A DNA stretch of 64,000 bases from Candidatus Hodarchaeota archaeon (GCA_048887225.1 JBHLJY010000001.1:352001-416000); one strand, 5' to 3'; positions 2,823 through 29,909 are shown, counted from the stretch's first letter. Numbers and translations: made by a program. Notes: generated by a model from the sequence alone, not told the origin.

Positions 2823-2912
2823 AATATTATTTTGAATAAATAAAAATTATTCAATGGAGAATTAAGAAGTAGAAAGAATTTTCTAAAAAAATTGTTTTTT
2901 TAAAAAACGCAG

Positions 2913-20821: not shown

Positions 20822-21943
20822 TTATATAGGGTTACATCCAAAACACCAATCATTTTTATAGGCTTGACATTCTAGACAATTCCTCCCACAAATGGTGTTT
20901 TGGTTATCTACACTAAAAAAATTTATAGGTAAAAATTGAGGCTTTGATATTTCTGAAGAAAAAGTAATTTCAAAGGATTTTATTAATTCTCTTTCCGATA
21001 GAACGCAATAATTTAAAAAATTATTTAAATCGTCCAGAGTTTTTCCTATAACACCTATAAAGAGATGAAATTGCCCTGTAATTTTTGATATCATGTATAT
21101 CCTAGGGCAATCATAATATTTATTGAGATAATTATTGATATCATTATAATTGTTAAATTCAATCTTAATTTGGGCAAATTTAAGATTAAGGCGGTTAGGA
21201 TCAATATTAGCTTGGATTTTAAGAAGACCCTTATTTATTAATTTATTAATTCGATTTTTAACTCCAGTATGACTCATTATTTTCTTTTTAATTTTAATTT
21301 CCATACCGATTCGGGTTTGGGTTCCATCAATAAATAATTGGTTTAATATTTGCTTATCAACTTCATCAATTATATTATTAGACTTTTTTGTGACTTTTTT
21401 TGAATCTTTTAATTTTTTTTCAATTTCTATTCTTTCCTTTTTATCTCTTTTACTTTCCAATCTTAGTTTTAGAATAGGTGATATATAAGATGCAATTGTT
21501 TCTAATAATTCAACTTCTTGTATGTTATAATCAGATTCTTTATTTGCAACTTCTAGAATTCCAATTACTTTATTTTGGGATTTAATTGGAACCATAATAG
21601 CTCTATTCATTGGAATATGCCCTTCTGGAACTTTAAATGGTTCATTGGAATACTTAGTTGTGCCTTCAATGATAGCTCTAGCCCACAAGGCTCTACTATT
21701 TTCCCAATCTTTACGAGGGAATATAATATCCTTGCCCTCAATTCTGCATTCTTCCATTACATCTCGAGTCATTGAAGGACAAATTAAATCACCATTAGTA
21801 GCGATATAACCAAAAATTCCATAGCTACTTTTTATTGTATTCATGATTATGTCTAATACGTTGGCATATATCTCATATCCCGGATATTTATTAAAGGTGT
21901 CAATAATTTTATCTCGAATTTGTAAATCCTTTTCCAAACTCAT
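20822..21943 (-). CDS. GAF domain-Lrp/AsnC regulator fusion with C-terminal Cys cluster
   Basis: GAF (VPEGHIPMNRAIMVPI...IGILEVANKESDY), coiled linker, IDEVDKQIL HTH, RAM domain, CGRNCLECQAYKNDWCFGC. Confidence 0.85.
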   Translation of the reverse strand: MSLEKDLQIRDKIIDTFNKYPGYEIYANVLDIIMNTIKSSYGIFGYIATNGDLICPSMTRDVMEECRIEGKDIIFPRKDWENSRALWARAIIEGTTKYSNEPFKVPEGHIPMNRAIMVPIKSQNKVIGILEVANKESDYNIQEVELLETIASYISPILKLRLESKRDKKERIEIEKKLKDSKKVTKKSNNIIDEVDKQILNQLFIDGTQTRIGMEIKIKKKIMSHTGVKNRINKLINKGLLKIQANIDPNRLNLKFAQIKIEFNNYNDINNYLNKYYDCPRIYMISKITGQFHLFIGVIGKTLDDLNNFLNYCVLSERELIKSFEITFSSEISKPQFLPINFFSVDNQNTICGRNCLECQAYKNDWCFGCNPI

Positions 21944-22280
21944 TGATTATTATTTTCTCCTCTTTTCTTTCTAAAATAAGTATTTTTTCTACTTTTTAAA
22001 TAAATGTTTTATAACTTTAAAGTATAATTTTTGATGTTTATTCTAAACTCAGATTAATTTATAATATTTATGATTTTAAGATTTTTAAATATTTTCTAAA
22101 TTAATTATGATATTGAATGTAATTAAGGAAGAAAGTTTAATAATCCCAGATAAATTATAGAAAAGTTTAAATATGAAAGTATTATCTTTTTTTGTAATAA
22201 AAAATTTTTAAAAATTTGTCCAAAAATGAAATTTACTATTCATTAATATGGTGATTTGAATTATAAGTAAAGTCTTAGAA

Positions 22281-22772
22281 ATGGATGATATTGATAGGAA
22301 TATTATTCAAATAATACAAGAGAATTCAAATCTTACACATACCGAAATTGCAAAAAAAGTTAATAGGAGTCAACCTACAGTTGGAATGCGAATCCGAAGG
22401 CTTGAAAAAGCTGGCATTTTGAAGTTTCAAGCAGGAATAAATTTAAAAACTGCTGATATACTTCTTGCAAGAGCTGAAATTGTAACAAATAATCCTAAAG
22501 AAATAGAACGTATTGTAAAAAATTGTCCTTTTATGATTAATGCATTTCGATTAAGTGGAAATTCAAATATTAGCGTTTTTATCGTCGGTTTTAAAATGAG
22601 CGAAATTGATAATATTATAAATTGCCATTTTAGAAAGAACCATTATGTAGAGAACATTAGTTTAGATATTATTCTTGATATAATAAATGATTTTGTCTTA
22701 CCTTTCAAGATTAATATCGACTATTGCGAAATTTGTAAAAAGGGGCAATGTTTTTCTAATTTTAAAGAATAA
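22281..22772 (+). CDS. Lrp/AsnC family transcriptional regulator
   Basis: DDIDRNIIQIIQENSNLTHTEIAKKVNRSQPTVGMRIRRLEKAG; C-terminal CEIC...C. May start at ATT/ATA 22260/22263. Confidence 0.9.
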   Translation: MDDIDRNIIQIIQENSNLTHTEIAKKVNRSQPTVGMRIRRLEKAGILKFQAGINLKTADILLARAEIVTNNPKEIERIVKNCPFMINAFRLSGNSNISVFIVGFKMSEIDNIINCHFRKNHYVENISLDIILDIINDFVLPFKINIDYCEICKKGQCFSNFKE

Positions 22773-22927
22773 ATTATAAAATTCTTTTAATTAAATTATA
22801 AATTATTTATGGGAAAAAAAGCCACTATTCTTACATTTAGAGATTAAAATTAAACCTGGGAACTCATAATAATTAGTAAAAAATTAAAATTAAATAATAT
22901 AGATAAACAAATTAATACTAACAAATT

Positions 22928-22942
22928 AAAAAGGTATAAATA
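22928..22942 (+). promoter_or_regulatory. Candidate BRE-TATA promoter of the trp leader/operon
   Basis: AAAAAGG followed by TATAAATA (22935-22942), about 55 bp upstream of the leader ATG. Confidence 0.5.
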
Positions 22943-22996
22943 ACATTTATTAATTATTTTTAATAATATTCAAAATCAAGTTAATGGAAAAGAAAA

Positions 22997-23068
22997 ATGT
23001 TTAGAAAAAATTTAAACCTAAAAGTTCCCTCATCAACTTGGTTTTGGGTTTGGTGTTGGCACGCATAG
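22997..23068 (+). CDS. trpL: Trp-rich leader peptide MFRKNLNLKVPSSTWFWVWCWHA (TrpL-like)
   Basis: 23-codon ORF with 4 TGG codons within 7 codons, ending 174 bp upstream of trpD on the same strand. Confidence 0.8.
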   Translation: MFRKNLNLKVPSSTWFWVWCWHA

Positions 23069-23120
23069 AGCGTGCGCAATGACTTTATCTATTTAAGAAT
23101 TTCTTGCTTTTTTCTCTTTA
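23014..23120 (+). promoter_or_regulatory. Candidate attenuator: two hairpins plus U-rich terminator tract
   Basis: AAACCTAAAA (23014-23)/TTTTGGGTTT (23042-51); GCACGC-ATAGA-GCGTGC (23059-75) extendable with TTG/CAA; pyrimidine tract TTTCTTGCTTTTTTCTCTTT at about 23100-23119. Confidence 0.6.
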
Positions 23121-23242
23121 TAATTCCTAAAGATTTTAGTTTGAATTATGAAGATTAAAATTGTTTTTTAAAATATTAGAAATTCCAATTCTATAAAGAT
23201 TTTAAAATGTTATGTTAAAAAAAAGAAATAAATTGTATAAAA

Positions 23243-24307
23243 ATGTCTGAAGAAAAAATAGTTGAAGGTTTAAAAAAAATAAGTCAAAATGTTAGCTTGA
23301 CAATTGAAGAAGCAGAAAATATAATGAGAGATATAATGTCTGGTAAAGTGCAAGACGCTCAATTAGGAGCATTTTTAACAGGATTAGCTATGAAGGGAGA
23401 GTCTATTGAGGAAATAACAGGCTTTGCTCTAATAATGAGAGAATTTGCAAACCGAATTCAACCTAAAGTAAACGGCGAGTTATTAGACACATGTGGAACT
23501 GGAGGAGATAAAATCAAAACATTTAATATAAGTACAATTTCAGCGTTAGTAGTGGCAGGGGCGGGAGTTCCTGTAGCAAAACATGGGAATCGTGCTGTAA
23601 CGAGTAAATGTGGAAGTGCTGATTTGTTAGAGGGATTAGGGGTGAAAATTGATTTACCTCCTGAAGAGGTTAAGACGTGTATTGAAGATGTAGGGATTGG
23701 ATTTATGTTTGCGCCTCTATTTCATCCAGCGATGATGTATGCTATGCCTACTAGAAGAGCATTAAAATTAAGAACAGTATTCAATATACTTGGTCCTTTA
23801 ACAAATCCCGCTAATGCGAAGTATCATACTTTAGGGGTTTTTGATAAGAGTTTAGCTCCGATTATGGCAAAAGTTCTCGGAAGCGGTTTAGGCGCAAAAC
23901 ATGTTTATACGATTCATAACTCTTGTGGCATTGATGAATTAGCACCTGTGGGAATTAATTATATAACAGAATTTAACAATGGAAATATTGAAACTTATGC
24001 TTTGACAAATAAAGATTTTGGAATTGAAGATTGCAATATAAATGATATTTTAGCAGGTAAATCTTTACAGGAGAATTTAGAAATTGCAGTTAGAATTTTG
24101 AAAAATGAACTCAAGGGTTCAAAATTTGATACTGTCTTAATGAATTCAGCTTTAGCCCTTACAAGTGCTGGTATAGCAAGTGGTATTAAGGAAGGTGTAA
24201 TACTCGCAAAAAACGCAGTAGAATCTGGAGCTGCTCATAAAAAACTTGAAGATTTAATTAATATATCGGGCGGAAACCAAGCAAAACTAAACAATTTATT
24301 GAAATAG
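23243..24307 (+). CDS. trpD: Anthranilate phosphoribosyltransferase
   Basis: DTCGTGGD, FNIST, KHGNRAVTSKCGSADLLE, RTVFNILGPLTNP. Confidence 0.97.
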   Translation: MSEEKIVEGLKKISQNVSLTIEEAENIMRDIMSGKVQDAQLGAFLTGLAMKGESIEEITGFALIMREFANRIQPKVNGELLDTCGTGGDKIKTFNISTISALVVAGAGVPVAKHGNRAVTSKCGSADLLEGLGVKIDLPPEEVKTCIEDVGIGFMFAPLFHPAMMYAMPTRRALKLRTVFNILGPLTNPANAKYHTLGVFDKSLAPIMAKVLGSGLGAKHVYTIHNSCGIDELAPVGINYITEFNNGNIETYALTNKDFGIEDCNINDILAGKSLQENLEIAVRILKNELKGSKFDTVLMNSALALTSAGIASGIKEGVILAKNAVESGAAHKKLEDLINISGGNQAKLNNLLK

Positions 24308-24308
24308 C

Positions 24309-25115
24309 ATGGAAGGAATGATATCAAATAAAATAAAGGAAATAGTAGAACAACGGCGAAAATCTATTGATAAGGATAGAAATTTTAAGTTCACATTAGG
24401 AGAGAAGGTGCATAAAGATAATCGACCAACTCTTAGTGAATCTATTGAAAAAGAGTCCGGGATCTCAATTATTTCTGAAATCAAGCCAGCTTCGCCAACT
24501 CTCGGTAAAATACGTAAAGAATTAGATATAAAAAAGATCGCAAAAGAAATGGAAAGTTCAGGTGTTGTTGGTTTAAGTGTTTTAACAGAACCTAATTATT
24601 TCGATGGTTCATATGAGAATTTGAGACTTGCGATAGAGAACACAAAAATACCATGTTTAATGAAAGACTTTGTTGTAGATCCTGTTCAAAATATAATTGC
24701 GTCTCAGTTGGGCGCAACAAATATATTGATAATTAATTCTATTTGTGATTTAGAAGAAAACTATCACTCTGCTGTAGATCATGGCCTGGAACCGTTAATA
24801 GAAATTCACGAGGTTGAAGAATTACAGGACATTAAGCATTTATTTGATATTGGGTTGAAACCGAAATTAATAGGAGTTAATAACCGAAATCTGAAAACGC
24901 TTGAAATTAATCTTAATACTTCAAAAGAAATTATTCCCAAATTAAAAGCGGAATTTGGGAATGAAATTGTTATTGTAAGTGAAAGTGGTGTAAACACGAT
25001 TGACGACATTAATTTTCTTTTAGAATATCAAGCTGATGCATTCTTAATTGGATCTTCTATAATGCAATCAGAGAATATAAAAGAAAAAATTTTTTCATTG
25101 AGAGGTGTAAATTGA
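24309..25115 (+). CDS. trpC: Indole-3-glycerol phosphate synthase
   Basis: ISEIKPASPTLG, LSVLTEPNYFDGS, KDFVVD, GVNNRNL, SESG. Confidence 0.96.
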   Translation: MEGMISNKIKEIVEQRRKSIDKDRNFKFTLGEKVHKDNRPTLSESIEKESGISIISEIKPASPTLGKIRKELDIKKIAKEMESSGVVGLSVLTEPNYFDGSYENLRLAIENTKIPCLMKDFVVDPVQNIIASQLGATNILIINSICDLEENYHSAVDHGLEPLIEIHEVEELQDIKHLFDIGLKPKLIGVNNRNLKTLEINLNTSKEIIPKLKAEFGNEIVIVSESGVNTIDDINFLLEYQADAFLIGSSIMQSENIKEKIFSLRGVN

Positions 25116-25762
25116 TGGAGTACATTAAAGTTTGTGGCTTAAGAGAAAGTGAACACATTAAATTATGTATAGATAATGATGCTAATGCTGTGGGCTTCAT
25201 TTACAACGTTCCTAGTTCACCGAGGAATTTAGAAAAACCTGAATTATTAAACCTTTTAAAAGGTATTCCTAAGAAATTATTAACTGTTGTTGTATCTAAA
25301 CCTAAAGATATCATGGAATTAGAAAATATAATGAATGAAATAGATGTTAATTTATATCAAATTCACAATAATTTTGAAGATACTGAAATTGATGATATTC
25401 CAACTGATTTAAAAGAAAAAATTGTTTTAGCATTAAAAGTAAATCCTTCCAATAAAAGTAATGTAATTAAAAAAATAAACAAATATCATGACCAGTTTTA
25501 TGCATTCTTAATTGATAATAGTGAAGGTCATGGTACTGAATTTAATTTCGATATCGCTAATGATATCATAAATAATACCGAAGGAGCGAGAATAATAATC
25601 GCTGGAGGTATAAATATTAATAATATTGAAAAGATAATTAGAGATTTAAACCCTTTTGGAATCGATGTGAGTAGTTCTTTAGAATCCAAAAAAGGGGTTA
25701 AAGAGCCATTAAAAATTCAAAATTTTTTAAATAAAATAAACGAAATTAAGAAAGAGTTGTGA
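25112..25762 (+). CDS. trpF: Phosphoribosylanthranilate isomerase
   Basis: [23 protein letters not shown]; position in operon. Confidence 0.93.
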
Positions 25763-25769
25763 GAGAGAC

Positions 25770-26972
25770 ATGAAATATAGTGAAAAATATCCCAATGAGT
25801 GCGGCAAATTTGGGGATTTCGGAGGGATATTTGCTCCAGAAGTTCTCATGCCAGCGCTAACTGAGCTTGCTGAAGCTTTTGAAAAATATAGAAATGACTT
25901 AAGTTTTAAAAATGAATTTTATCAGATTCTCGAATCATATGGAGGGCGTCCAACACCCTTATTCTATGCTAAAAAATACAGTGAAGATATAGGATGCAAA
26001 GTGTATCTGAAAAGAGAGGATTTAGTACATGGTGGAGCTCATAAATTAAATAATGTAATAGGACAGGCTTTATTAGCGAAAAAAATGGGAAAAACAAAAT
26101 TGGTTGCTGAGACTGGCGCTGGACAACATGGATTCGCGACAGCTATTGCTGGTGCTTATTTCGGCATGGAAACAAAAGTATTTATGGGAGAAGTTGATAT
26201 TGTTAGGCAAGCGTATAACGTCTATCGAATGCAGCTTCTCGGAGCTGAAGTAATACCCGTAAGCACGGGTTCCAGAACACTAAAGGATGCAATTAATGAT
26301 GGACTTAGATATTGGATCACCAATGTTAGAGACACTCACTATTTAATGGGAAGCGTTGTCGGTCCACATCCCTATCCGCTATTAGTTAGAGAATTCCAAA
26401 GAATTATTGGTATTGAAACTAAGAAGCAAATAATAGAATTAGAGGGACGATTACCTAATGCCATTGTTGCGTGTATAGGTGGTGGAAGTAATGCCATTGG
26501 TATAATGTATGATTTCATTGAAAATGAAAATGTCCAGTTAATTGGAGTTGAGGCGGCCGGAGAGGGATTAGAAACAGGAAAACATTCAATAGCATTAGGA
26601 TTAGGTCGAAGAGGTGTTTTACATGGATCATTAATGTATTTATTACAAAATGAATATGGTAATATATTGGAGACTCATTCTATAAGTGCGGGACTAGATT
26701 ATCCCGGTGTAGGTCCTGAACATTGTTTCTTAAAAGAATTAACTCGCCTTAGAGTGGAAGCCGCAACCGACAAAGAGACTTTAGACGCTTTTCAAAAATT
26801 ATCAGTCTTAGAAGGTATCATTCCAGCATTAGAATCTTCGCATGCCCTTGCATGTCTGGAAAGAATTAAGGGTGAGTTTAATAAGGATGATATTGTAATA
26901 ATTAATTTATCTGGCTCAGGATCTAAAGATCTAGACATAATTAAACAGCATATGGAGTTTAAAGTAAAATGA
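25770..26972 (+). CDS. trpB: Tryptophan synthase beta chain (TrpB1 type)
   Basis: [44 protein letters not shown]. Confidence 0.98.
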
Positions 26973-27808
26973 ATGATTCAAATAGAATTTTGAACCTTTT
27001 TAATGATAAGGAAGTAATAAACGAAAAATGTTTTATGCCTTTTCTAGTATGTGGAGATCCTTCAATTGAGCAGTTCATATCAATGGTTAAAAAGATCGAT
27101 CCATATATAGATATCCTTGAATTAGGAGTGCCATTTAGCGATCCAATTGCCGATGGTCCCACCGTTCAGGAGGCAAATATGAGGGCATTTGAAGCGGGAA
27201 TCAACACAAAAGTAGCTCTTGATACAATCAAGAGAATCAGAACATTTTTTAACAAACCGATTGTTATTTTAACTTATTATAACATCTTAATCCAAGGATC
27301 AGAGACAATCGAAAGTTCTTTGGATAATACCTTAAAATTATGTAAGGAAAGTGGTATAGATGGAATTGTTATCGCTGATCTCCCAATTGAAGAAGCAGGA
27401 TTAGCGTTGAAATATTGTAAAAAACATGACATATCGCTTATATTTTTAATTGCTCCAACAACTACAGACGATAGATTAGAAAAAATCTTAAAAGAAGCAA
27501 GAGGATTTGTCTATTTAATATCAATCTTAGGTGTTACTGGGGCTCGAGAAAAAGTCGCACAAATCACGAAAGAAACGATTAAAAGAGTAAAAGAAAAGAT
27601 CAAATCTAAAATACCAATATTCTTGGGATTTGGTATATCTAAACCTGAGCACGCTTCCACTCTAGTGGAACTAGGAGCTGATGGTATTATTATTGGTTCG
27701 GCAATAATAGACGTCATTAAGAGAAATTTAAGTGATTTTAATAAAATGGAGCAAGAATTAGTTGAATTTGTATCAAGTATAAAAAATGCGATAAAGAGGT
27801 CGAGTTAA
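26969..27808 (+). CDS. trpA: Tryptophan synthase alpha chain
   Basis: [28 protein letters not shown]. Confidence 0.97.
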
Positions 27809-27810
27809 CT

Positions 27811-29307
27811 ATGGAATTTGATATACATATAGAAAAAATTGGTCATTTGGATAATATTTTTAGTTTTTATAAATATTTAGTTAAGAAATATGATTTAAAA
27901 AAACATGTTCTATTAGAATCTGCTTCGGAAAACACGAAGGAAACCCTTTACAGCTTTATAGCGTTAGAACCCGATTATATGCTGGAAATCAATGAAGATA
28001 AATATAAAATTTTCGATATCACTACTGAGCGAGGGGAAAATATTAATGATTACGTAGAATCTAAAGATATTTCGGAAGAAAGGCCGCATAATCCACTGCC
28101 ATTTAAGGACAATGTTGAATATAACATGGTCGCCCTTGATACTCTAAGTTCTCTTACGCCATATTCAAATCTGCCTTTCACGGAGTTATTTCCAAGAAAT
28201 ATTTTCTACGGCGGAATGTTAGGTTATATAGGATATGATGTTGTTGCCCCATATGTAGGTTATAAATCTACTAGTGAATTTTCTGATATTTTAATGGGAT
28301 TATATACAAAAGTGCTTGTTTACTCTCATGAATCTAACTTATTATTTATGATCGATAATAGTATCGATGATTACTCCCGAGATAAAGAAATTCGTTATCA
28401 GTTGAGTTTATTCAAGAGAAATAACAGTTCCGCCGAAAAGAAGGAAATTCCCTTGGATATCGAAGATATTGATGAATCTGGGTTTAGATCTAATACGTCC
28501 AAATCCGCTCACGAGAGAATGGTTGAAAAAACTAAAGAATATATATATGCAGGCGATATAATACAAGCAGTTATTTCCCGAAGATTATATACTGAGAGTA
28601 AGATTGACCCTATGGCTATTTATGAGGTTCTACGGGTTTTAAATCCTTCACAATATATGTATAACTTAAATTTTGATGATATTAAAATCATAGGGAGTAG
28701 CCCTGAAGCGCTGATTTCTAAGAATAAAGACGTTCTTAATACTGTTCCGATTGCTGGTACAATAAGGAGGGGCAAGACTCCAGAAGAAGACCTTAAATTG
28801 GAAAAAGAATTACTTAATGATCCCAAGGAGCAAGCCGAACATCTCCAATTGGTGGATCTTGGGAGAAATGACCTTGCTAAAGTTTCATATCCTGGTTCTG
28901 TCGAAACTTATGAATTTATGATAATTCAAAAATATCAAAAAGTTCAGCATATTGTAAGTAAAGTTAGAAGTAGGACACCTTTAGACGGCTACGAAGTTTT
29001 GAAGAGCGTTTTCCCTGCTGGGACGCTCTCTGGTGCGCCTAAACTGAGGGCTATGCAAATAATACAAGAATTAGAAACAGAATCGAGGGGCCCCTATGGT
29101 GGTGGTGTGGGATATTTCTCGTTTAATGGTGATATGGCGTTTGCCATAGCCATCAGGACTCTATTTGGAATGGACGGGACATATTTTGCGCAAGCGGGAG
29201 GTGGCATTGTTTCCGATAGCCAGCCTCACGAAGAATACATAGAAACTTACAATAAACTATATAGCGTTCTAAAATCAATAAAAATAGCGGAGGCCAGAGA
29301 TAAATGA
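27811..29307 (+). CDS. trpE: Anthranilate synthase component I
   Basis: LLES, GSSPE, PIAGT, EHLQLVDLGRND, FPAGTLSGAPKLRAM. Confidence 0.96.
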   Translation: MEFDIHIEKIGHLDNIFSFYKYLVKKYDLKKHVLLESASENTKETLYSFIALEPDYMLEINEDKYKIFDITTERGENINDYVESKDISEERPHNPLPFKDNVEYNMVALDTLSSLTPYSNLPFTELFPRNIFYGGMLGYIGYDVVAPYVGYKSTSEFSDILMGLYTKVLVYSHESNLLFMIDNSIDDYSRDKEIRYQLSLFKRNNSSAEKKEIPLDIEDIDESGFRSNTSKSAHERMVEKTKEYIYAGDIIQAVISRRLYTESKIDPMAIYEVLRVLNPSQYMYNLNFDDIKIIGSSPEALISKNKDVLNTVPIAGTIRRGKTPEEDLKLEKELLNDPKEQAEHLQLVDLGRNDLAKVSYPGSVETYEFMIIQKYQKVQHIVSKVRSRTPLDGYEVLKSVFPAGTLSGAPKLRAMQIIQELETESRGPYGGGVGYFSFNGDMAFAIAIRTLFGMDGTYFAQAGGGIVSDSQPHEEYIETYNKLYSVLKSIKIAEARDK

Positions 29308-29909
29308 AAATTTTATTTATTAACAACTACGACAGTTTTGTGTACAATTTGGTGAATTATTTCTGCCAAGTAGCACCAGATTCAAATATAATCGTTGAGG
29401 ATAACAATATCCCAGTTGATAAAGTCAAGAATATGAATATTGATAAGATTGTTATATCTCCTGGTCCAGGACATCCTAAGTACGATACAGGCACAGTAAT
29501 ACCCATCATTAAAGAATTTTATTCTAAATTACCAATATTAGGAGTTTGTCTAGGACATCAAGCGCTAGTAGAAGCATTTGGAGAATTGGAACATCCCGAT
29601 AATGACATCGAATATGTGGGACTGGCGAAAGTTGGTCCTATGCATGGAAAAATCTCAAAAATATTCCATGATCAAGAAACTATTTTTAAAGATATACAAA
29701 ATCCTCTAATGGGCGTAAGATATCACTCTTTAGCTGCTAAATCAGATTTATTGTCTCAAGATTTAAAAATCAGCGCTACTGCAGACGATGGCACTATAAT
29801 GGGCGTTCGTCACAAACATTACTGTATCGAGGGTATTCAATTTCATCCAGAATCCATTAAAATGAAGCCTCATGGAATTACAATATTGAAAAACTTTTTA
29901 AAACTATAA
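29304..29909 (+). CDS. trpG: Anthranilate synthase component II (glutamine amidotransferase)
   Basis: NYDSFVYNL, SPGPG, GVCLGHQ, RYHSL, QFHPES. Confidence 0.96.
   Translation: MKILFINNYDSFVYNLVNYFCQVAPDSNIIVEDNNIPVDKVKNMNIDKIVISPGPGHPKYDTGTVIPIIKEFYSKLPILGVCLGHQALVEAFGELEHPDNDIEYVGLAKVGPMHGKISKIFHDQETIFKDIQNPLMGVRYHSLAAKSDLLSQDLKISATADDGTIMGVRHKHYCIEGIQFHPESIKMKPHGITILKNFLKL

Follow-up and report, generated by a model that had tools for sequence, protein, structure and literature searches.

The window, by which we mean the whole 64,000-nt stretch of archaeal DNA that was analysed, contains seven ORFs matching the Pfam families of TrpD, TrpC, TrpF, TrpB, TrpA, TrpE, and TrpG, and a short ORF (sORF) on the same strand ends 174 nt upstream of this complete trp operon, whose trpD begins at 23243 (Table 1). 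The genome (G000) comprises 3.27 Mb with 30.5% G+C and is 98% complete. In the named collection, the MAGs closest to it carry the label Promethearchaeota or Promethearchaeia, i.e., Loki-type Asgard archaea, and its DNA was found in sediment metagenomes. The sORF starts with ATG, carries its four UGG codons at 23039-41, 23045-47, 23051-53, and 23057-59, and ends with TAG at 23066-68; these data confirmed the coordinates and the translation given in the original prediction, which had been made from the sequence alone and described four alternating Trp codons 174 nt before trpD. No Shine-Dalgarno-like sequence was found 5' of the sORF.

Sequences resembling the BRE and TATA elements that had been proposed upstream of the sORF were present, and in 24 leaders of the window's own family (f1) a TATA-like block aligned at the same place, approximately 50-60 nt 5' of the sORF start. 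The position of the TATA-like octamer predicts a transcript start near 22962-22968, about 30 nt 5' of the sORF. A 7-codon upstream ORF (22984-23004) that overlaps the sORF, and that had been suggested to affect initiation, exists in the window; its start codon was missing from several close relatives in the alignment, and it appears to be incidental.

The AsnC/Lrp-type regulator gene preceding the leader has two paralogues on contig C10 and scored under every NCBIfam equivalog cut-off, and no counterpart of it was found beside the trp leader when the upstream flanks of the other loci were compared. A GAF-domain protein of 373 residues (20822-21943, minus strand) is encoded upstream of this regulator gene. 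On the trpD side of the leader, 13 loci from relatives contain an ORF of 80-99 residues as the first gene of the operon (e.g., L036:600-899, L006:1242-1499, and L041:67-348 on the minus strand), with a conserved G-P-E-K ... T-A-x-F-I motif; it could be assigned to no family in Pfam or NCBIfam, and this genome has no copy of it.

Table 1. Features of the trp leader region, with positions counted from the first nucleotide of the window
Feature	Position	Strand	Basis or remark
AsnC/Lrp-type winged-helix regulator gene	22281-22772	+	Ends 224 nt 5' of sORF
Promoter-like element: BRE-like purine-rich stretch (22928-34) and TATA-like octamer TATAAATA (22935-42)	22928-22942	+	Sequence
Helix PA, 5'UTR arm, pairs with 23031-23048	22969-22986	+	MFE and centroid fold, A1 alignment
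Leader sORF, 23 codons (P0001), Trp at 15, 17, 19, and 21, then His, Ala, stop	22997-23068	+	Sequence, translation, orthologues
Helix PA, 3' arm, codons 12-17 including the first two UGG	23031-23048	+	Fold, A1 alignment, RNAduplex
Hairpin P2/P2x, 5' strand 23055-64 (last UGG, His and Ala codons), 3' strand 23070-75 and 23077-80	23055-23080	+	Fold, A1 alignment
Conserved post-stop motif GCAAUGAC (GCAAUGG or GCAUUGG in relatives)	23076-23083	+	Alignments
Long-range helix P6, 5' arm, pairs with 23177-23184	23097-23104	+	91% paired in A1, compensatory changes
U-rich tract with T6 run (23108-13), candidate archaeal termination or 3'-end signal	23100-23119	+	Sequence
Hairpin P7, 23116-26 with 23143-53, inside the P6 loop	23116-23153	+	Fold; 69-83% paired in A1; weakest helix
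Helix P6, 3' arm, followed by UCCAAU motif (23183-88) recurring in leaders of several families	23177-23184	+	A1 alignment
trpD-trpC-trpF-trpB-trpA-trpE-trpG operon, presumed regulated genes	23243-29909	+	ORFs; Pfam families for all seven

Conservation of the Trp-rich reading frame

A short, unannotated ORF that lacks a Shine-Dalgarno sequence could have arisen by chance in AT-rich intergenic DNA and be functionless, and AT-rich genomes are full of small ORFs (92,315 were counted here). The statistics of this genome contradicted such an origin. Windows with 4 UGG in 7 codons occurred approximately 24 times genome-wide in six frames, and among 10,525 intergenic sORFs, only 4 contained at least 3 Trp in 7 residues; the sORF of the window was the only one of these 4 with its Trp block at the C terminus. 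Trp accounted for 17% of its residues, compared with 0.8% of intergenic sORF residues genome-wide, and the prior odds that such an sORF would lie on the correct strand in the 250 nt ahead of the only trp operon were on the order of 1 in 1,000. On these sequence statistics, a chance origin within the genome was excluded, and the conservation described below refutes a functionless ORF for practical purposes.

The comparison with related Asgard genomes that had been suggested alongside the original prediction revealed that the Trp-rich sORF is conserved across families. We located trpD in 60 relatives and scanned the 700 nt upstream with one script. In the first search, a short ORF ending in W-x-W-x-W, followed by Arg or His, 0-2 further residues, and the stop, was found at approximately 21 of 25 trpD loci, the positives spanning four other families of the class and including some loci at 45-54% G+C. 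A class-wide search of 161 genomes, 40 of them with trpD, added 13 loci, and all those among them that came from the window's own family carried the sORF. The sORF was likewise present at all 21 AT-rich Loki-type metagenome loci whose upstream sequence extended to 250 nt or more and at trpD in all 12 records named Promethearchaeota or Promethearchaeia. In total, approximately 60 Promethearchaeota (Loki-type) trpD loci had an upstream Trp-rich sORF ending 1-4 codons past the last UGG, a count that overstates independence, as the compared sequences are mutually related. When the same script was applied to about 52 control trpD loci with approximately 50% identical TrpD and 40-56% G+C, it returned 0-1 match, the one being doubtful, and it returned no proximal Trp-rich sORF at 68 further control trpD loci from Bathyarchaeia, Hadarchaeota, Hydrothermarchaeales, and others.

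The pattern of conservation indicates, at the sequence level, that the Trp-rich element behaves as a reading frame. An in-frame stop followed the last UGG within 1-4 codons in 31 of 32 leaders (median 2, vs 16.5 and 9.5 in the other frames), and the frame 5' of the UGGs stayed open for a median of 21 codons (vs 6 and 10). Nearly all leaders had an ATG start. The spacer between the start codon and the first UGG took at least 8 different lengths, ranging from 7 to 41 codons, with the frame always kept. Conservation across groups was limited to the Trp codons and the codon that follows them, and the N-terminal parts were unrelated between groups.

RNA structure of the leaders

The 286-nt leader of the window folded better than its shuffled versions (z = -3.45). 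Thirteen leaders of the window's type (group A) were aligned (A1), and four helices, PA, P2/P2x, P6, and P7, were tested together. In this alignment, 82% of the cells were paired, compared with 30-45% in slid controls, and 14 pairs had changed on both sides, compared with 7.2 +/- 1.6 in shuffles, of which 0 of 500 reached this number, the structure under test having been derived from the window sequence, which favours the window structure somewhat. Helix PA, between the 5'UTR and the Trp codons, was 82% paired with 6 pairs changed on both sides, reached -12 to -20 kcal/mol by RNAduplex in 12 relatives, and had an equivalent with an unrelated sequence in a family-f3 locus. The predicted GC-rich hairpin over the last Trp codon, with the stop in its loop, was present (GCACGC/AUAGA/GCGUGC, 23059-64 with 23070-75, the stop codon lying in the AUAGA loop); P2/P2x was 88% paired in A1 with compensatory changes, and its equivalent in the other leader type was 86% paired in 38 sequences, with GC-rich versions in family f4. 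The covariation of PA and P2 answered the proposal to look for covarying hairpins among relatives. A different hairpin (23014-23 with 23042-51), which had been proposed to hold the first two Trp codons, can form in the window; it was not conserved, being 56% paired in relatives, the same as in slid controls, and the aligned sequences place PA, i.e., pairing of the 5'UTR with the Trp codons, as the conserved helix over the first two UGGs.

Beyond the stop codon, part of the conserved post-stop motif pairs back onto the last Trp codons, and a covariation scan paired UGGCC with GGUUA. P6 was also predicted de novo in a close relative. The UCCAAU motif was found in the leaders L020, L026, and L014 and in a hairpin (P4) of the group B leaders described below, and CAUUGG, which resembles its complement, recurs after the stop in Trp leaders of different families as well as in a Leu leader (L238, approximately 2865-2870, minus strand). 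Neither motif had a consistent pairing partner, and CAUUGG-CCAAU pairing, inspected by eye, was without covariation.

The second leader type (group B) precedes most trp operons of the family and also trpB2, a stand-alone TrpB-like gene. In these leaders, the 5'UTR pairs with post-stop sequence (P1) and thereby encloses the whole sORF, the conserved post-stop motif pairs with the last Trp codons in P2 and its extension P2b, and a hairpin module (P3/P4) lies 20-40 nt 5' of the gene. In the corresponding alignment of 38 sequences (A2), 85% of the cells were paired, compared with 36-52% in slid controls, and 61 cells were doubly changed, compared with 19.9 +/- 4.8 in shuffles (0 of 500 as high); one P3 pair alone was A-U 15 times, G-C 12 times, U-A 4 times, and G-U or U-G 5 times. 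Two metagenome loci (L047 and L048) joined a group B 5' half, with its pairing between the 5'UTR and post-stop sequence, to a group A 3' half with the P6 arms. Because of these mixed leaders, the two halves appear, from their sequences, to be interchangeable modules, with two 5' types and two 3' types.

Related leaders before trpB2 and leuA

A Trp-rich sORF was found before trpB2 (NCBIfam NF009057) in 20 of 30 relatives, its stop lying 125-170 nt before the start codon of the gene, and several of these relatives had no trp operon. In this genome, the trpB2 leader (C11:31654-31821; L207:255-422, plus strand) is of the group B type and has lost its Trp codons and start codon, a loss shared with two close relatives, whose trpB2 leaders likewise retain the structured 3' module. 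The leader of this genome keeps the stop hairpin P2, the post-stop motif, and the P3/P4 module (nhmmer E = 4e-12), which suggests that the 3' module can persist without the sORF and has some role of its own. A further nhmmer match, on contig C25, lay inside a coding region and was discarded as a false positive. On this comparative evidence, the trp operon and trpB2 form a regulon under one leader type.

The original prediction had also proposed a search for His-, Leu-, Phe-, or Thr-rich leaders before other biosynthetic operons, and this was borne out for Leu. On contig C11, a 32-codon sORF (L238:2901-2999, minus strand) with seven Leu among its last nine residues ends 93 nt before the 2-isopropylmalate synthase gene leuA (L238:1194-2807, minus strand; NCBIfam NF002085, above the cut-off). 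A Leu-run sORF occupied the same position before leuA in 24 of 30 relatives, the sister family included, and a hairpin starting at its stop codon covaried among the relatives. One complete genome of the sister family (6.0 Mb) carries leaders of both the Trp and the Leu type (loci L020 and L263). We regard it as a candidate Leu-sensing leader peptide, and its presence before leuA supports the sensing of codons. The codon-enrichment scan of this genome's sORFs also returned His, Thr, Cys, and Met candidates, none of which had a matching downstream gene.

A proposed sensor, its alternatives, and known systems

The conservation of the ORF, its frame, and its stop, the covariation of the RNA, and the parallels at trpB2 and leuA agree with the original prediction of a Trp-codon leader peptide with a logic similar to that of bacterial TrpL. 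Taken together, these comparative data strongly support a Trp-codon-rich leader peptide, predicted to be translated, that would act as a cis sensor before an Asgard-type archaeal trp operon. Our main reading, to which we assign a probability of roughly 0.7, is that the region constitutes a ribosome-dependent tryptophan sensor, i.e., a leader-peptide attenuator in the broad sense. We infer the following course of events, from sORF translation and ribosome stalling to the sign and the output of the regulation. Transcription would start approximately 30 nt upstream of the sORF, and a ribosome would translate its 23 codons while the leader is still being synthesised. When charged tRNA-Trp is scarce, the ribosome would stall shortly before the sORF ends, at its four alternating UGG codons. 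In every version of the leader, the Trp codons are helix strands, with the stop located inside or beside a hairpin, and a stalled ribosome would hold these helices open; in the window, the UGG codons form strands of both PA (with the 5'UTR) and P2 (with the stop in its loop), and both would remain open. A ribosome that reads through and leaves would allow PA and P2 to close, and this closed state, together with the downstream U-rich sequence, would reduce trpDCFBAEG expression, whereas the open, stalled state would result in read-through. For the sign of this regulation, we assume that stalling switches the operon on, as the biology of biosynthetic operons suggests. The most likely route would be premature 3'-end formation, either by intrinsic oligo-U termination or in dependence on aCPSF1/FttA, and we rank it ahead of control of translation or mRNA stability. 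A coupling of stalling to archaeal termination is a plausible hypothesis.

The U-rich tract that had been noted at approximately 23100-23119 was present. Among 51 leaders, 65% had a T run of at least 5 at 20-70 nt past the stop, compared with 31-40% of the background (approximately 2-fold); a cruder test, counting T runs of at least 5 within 60 nt of the stop, found no enrichment (41% of leaders vs 36% of the background), and the T6 run of the window was interrupted in its closest relatives. A scan for consensus terminators found no terminator-like hairpin with a U run in the leader. Folding with and without a ribosome footprint on the Trp codons, a check that had been proposed with the original prediction, left the downstream structure unchanged in 17 leaders. 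The freed 5'UTR arm of PA had no partner in the downstream leader better than shuffles by RNAduplex, and a possible match between the post-stop strand and the P3 strand, considered by eye, was without covariation. The terminator scan, the constrained folds, and RNAduplex therefore agreed with the earlier impression that no classical, mutually exclusive terminator/antiterminator pair is present.

The same sensor might instead act on the initiation of trpD translation, or on mRNA stability or processing, without any termination. The weak and inconstant enrichment of U-tracts would fit this output, as would the conserved, covarying module 20-60 nt before the downstream start codon (P6/P7 here, P3/P4 in the other type) and the retention of a structured 3' module in trpB2 leaders without an sORF. 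Moreover, intrinsic termination in archaea needs no hairpin, which would leave a hairpin switch without an obvious target. Nonetheless, trpD lies 174 nt from the sORF stop, no pairing was found between the leader and the trpD initiation region, and the folds with occupied Trp codons left both the 3' module and the trpD start unchanged, so we consider this output unlikely, albeit the most serious of the competing explanations. A TnaC-like arrest peptide, which would sense free tryptophan in the ribosome tunnel and stall at high Trp, is improbable. Arg, Gln, Pro, and His are favoured between the Trp positions, the Trp block is invariably 1-4 codons from the stop, and the W-x-W alternation departs from the tandem arrangement of regulatory codons in bacterial leaders, all of which such a peptide might explain; however, the residues in between differ greatly from group to group and are under the additional constraint of RNA pairing, the N-terminal parts share no similarity between groups, and the Trp-Asp-Pro spacing of TnaC was not seen on inspection of P0001 and its orthologues. 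The Leu-run leader before leuA likewise fits the sensing of codon supply rather than of a ligand.

Bacillus TRAP binds regularly spaced triplets, and the 6-nt period of the UGGs recalls such a site; the UGGs could accordingly represent a TRAP-like protein site or a DNA operator, with the ORF being incidental. One more UGG in the conserved post-stop motif and the AsnC/Lrp-type gene just upstream would suit this explanation, which we consider very improbable. No member of the TRAP family (Pfam PF02081) was found in the 98%-complete genome, a search in which the Bacillus subtilis control was positive, and the neighbouring regulator was not syntenic at any other locus. The start codon, open frame, and stop position are conserved far beyond those of the other frames, the helices keep pairing via G-U changes, as expected of RNA and not of a DNA palindrome, and both the codon and the pathway differ in the Leu analogue.

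Returning to the leader-peptide sensor, leader-peptide attenuation is the textbook case of coupled transcription and translation, and what such attenuators share in general, a conserved sORF with cognate codons and the placement of these regulatory codons in conserved RNA structure, was found in the Asgard leaders. As in enterobacterial trpL (RF00513), a short ORF lies directly upstream of the trp genes, its Trp codons stand a few codons before the stop and are followed by an Arg or His codon, these codons take part in an RNA helix, base pairing encloses the region where the leader ORF is initiated, and U-rich sequence lies downstream. In contrast to trpL, the archaeal Trp codons alternate (W-x-W-x-W) instead of being in tandem and pair with the 5'UTR, neither a 2:3 antiterminator nor a 3:4 hairpin-plus-U terminator was found, and the RNA polymerase and termination factors are different. 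A cmscan of 22000-24000 with E values up to 10 returned neither RF00513 Trp_leader nor a T-box, only four chance-level snoRNA/lncRNA matches. Because the leader matched no Rfam model and had no alternative terminator/antiterminator pair, it does not belong to the trpL RNA family, and because archaeal termination does without hairpin terminators, its mechanism must differ from that of E. coli.

Leader-peptide attenuators predicted in other bacterial phyla and the Cys-codon sORFs of mycobacteria, all of them bacterial (PMC1262725; bioRxiv 10.1101/834739), resemble the Asgard leaders in being conserved cognate-codon sORFs before biosynthetic operons that were found by comparative genomics, and in covering several amino acids per lineage (Trp and Leu in Asgard); the archaeal element differs in having an RNA architecture of its own. 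The archaeal trp regulators that we found described, TrpY of Methanothermobacter and Tar (TK0271) of Thermococcus, are DNA-binding proteins (PMC6737238). These concern the same pathway in Archaea, and the response is presumably to tryptophan supply in both cases, but they bind DNA at the promoter, whereas the Asgard signal consists of an ORF and RNA helices beside a regulator gene that is not positionally conserved. The Bacillus TRAP/anti-TRAP and T-box systems also employ a leader RNA with repeated triplets that reports tryptophan or the charging of tRNA-Trp; unlike these, the Asgard genome lacks a TRAP homologue, the leader lacks a T-box match, and the UGGs are sense codons of a conserved ORF. 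A full-text search of the published literature found no archaeal leader-peptide attenuator. One apparent match to archaeal leader peptides concerned secretion leader peptides. As far as we found, leader-peptide attenuation is established only in bacteria, and the Asgard element would represent a regulator of a known sort in a domain from which we found no prior report.

A broader reading, which we advance tentatively and hold to be rather less probable than its negation, is that Loki-type Asgard archaea possess a general ribosome-based system of amino-acid sensing, covering at least Trp (trp operon and trpB2) and Leu (leuA), whose output is archaeal and not a hairpin-terminator switch. The stalled ribosome could, as one possibility, govern whether aCPSF1/FttA or another factor reaches the nascent leader; action of the released leader as a small RNA is another. 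If this general reading is correct, leader-peptide control would have been built independently on an archaeal, eukaryote-like transcription machinery. The very difference from E. coli makes regulated termination in archaea directly testable, and the leader, if it works as proposed, would offer a natural cis-element for studying the coupling of the archaeal ribosome, RNA polymerase, and termination factors. It would also imply that current Asgard annotation lacks small ORFs and leader RNAs of this class, and that metabolites are sensed by means of the ribosome in the archaeal lineage nearest to eukaryotes.
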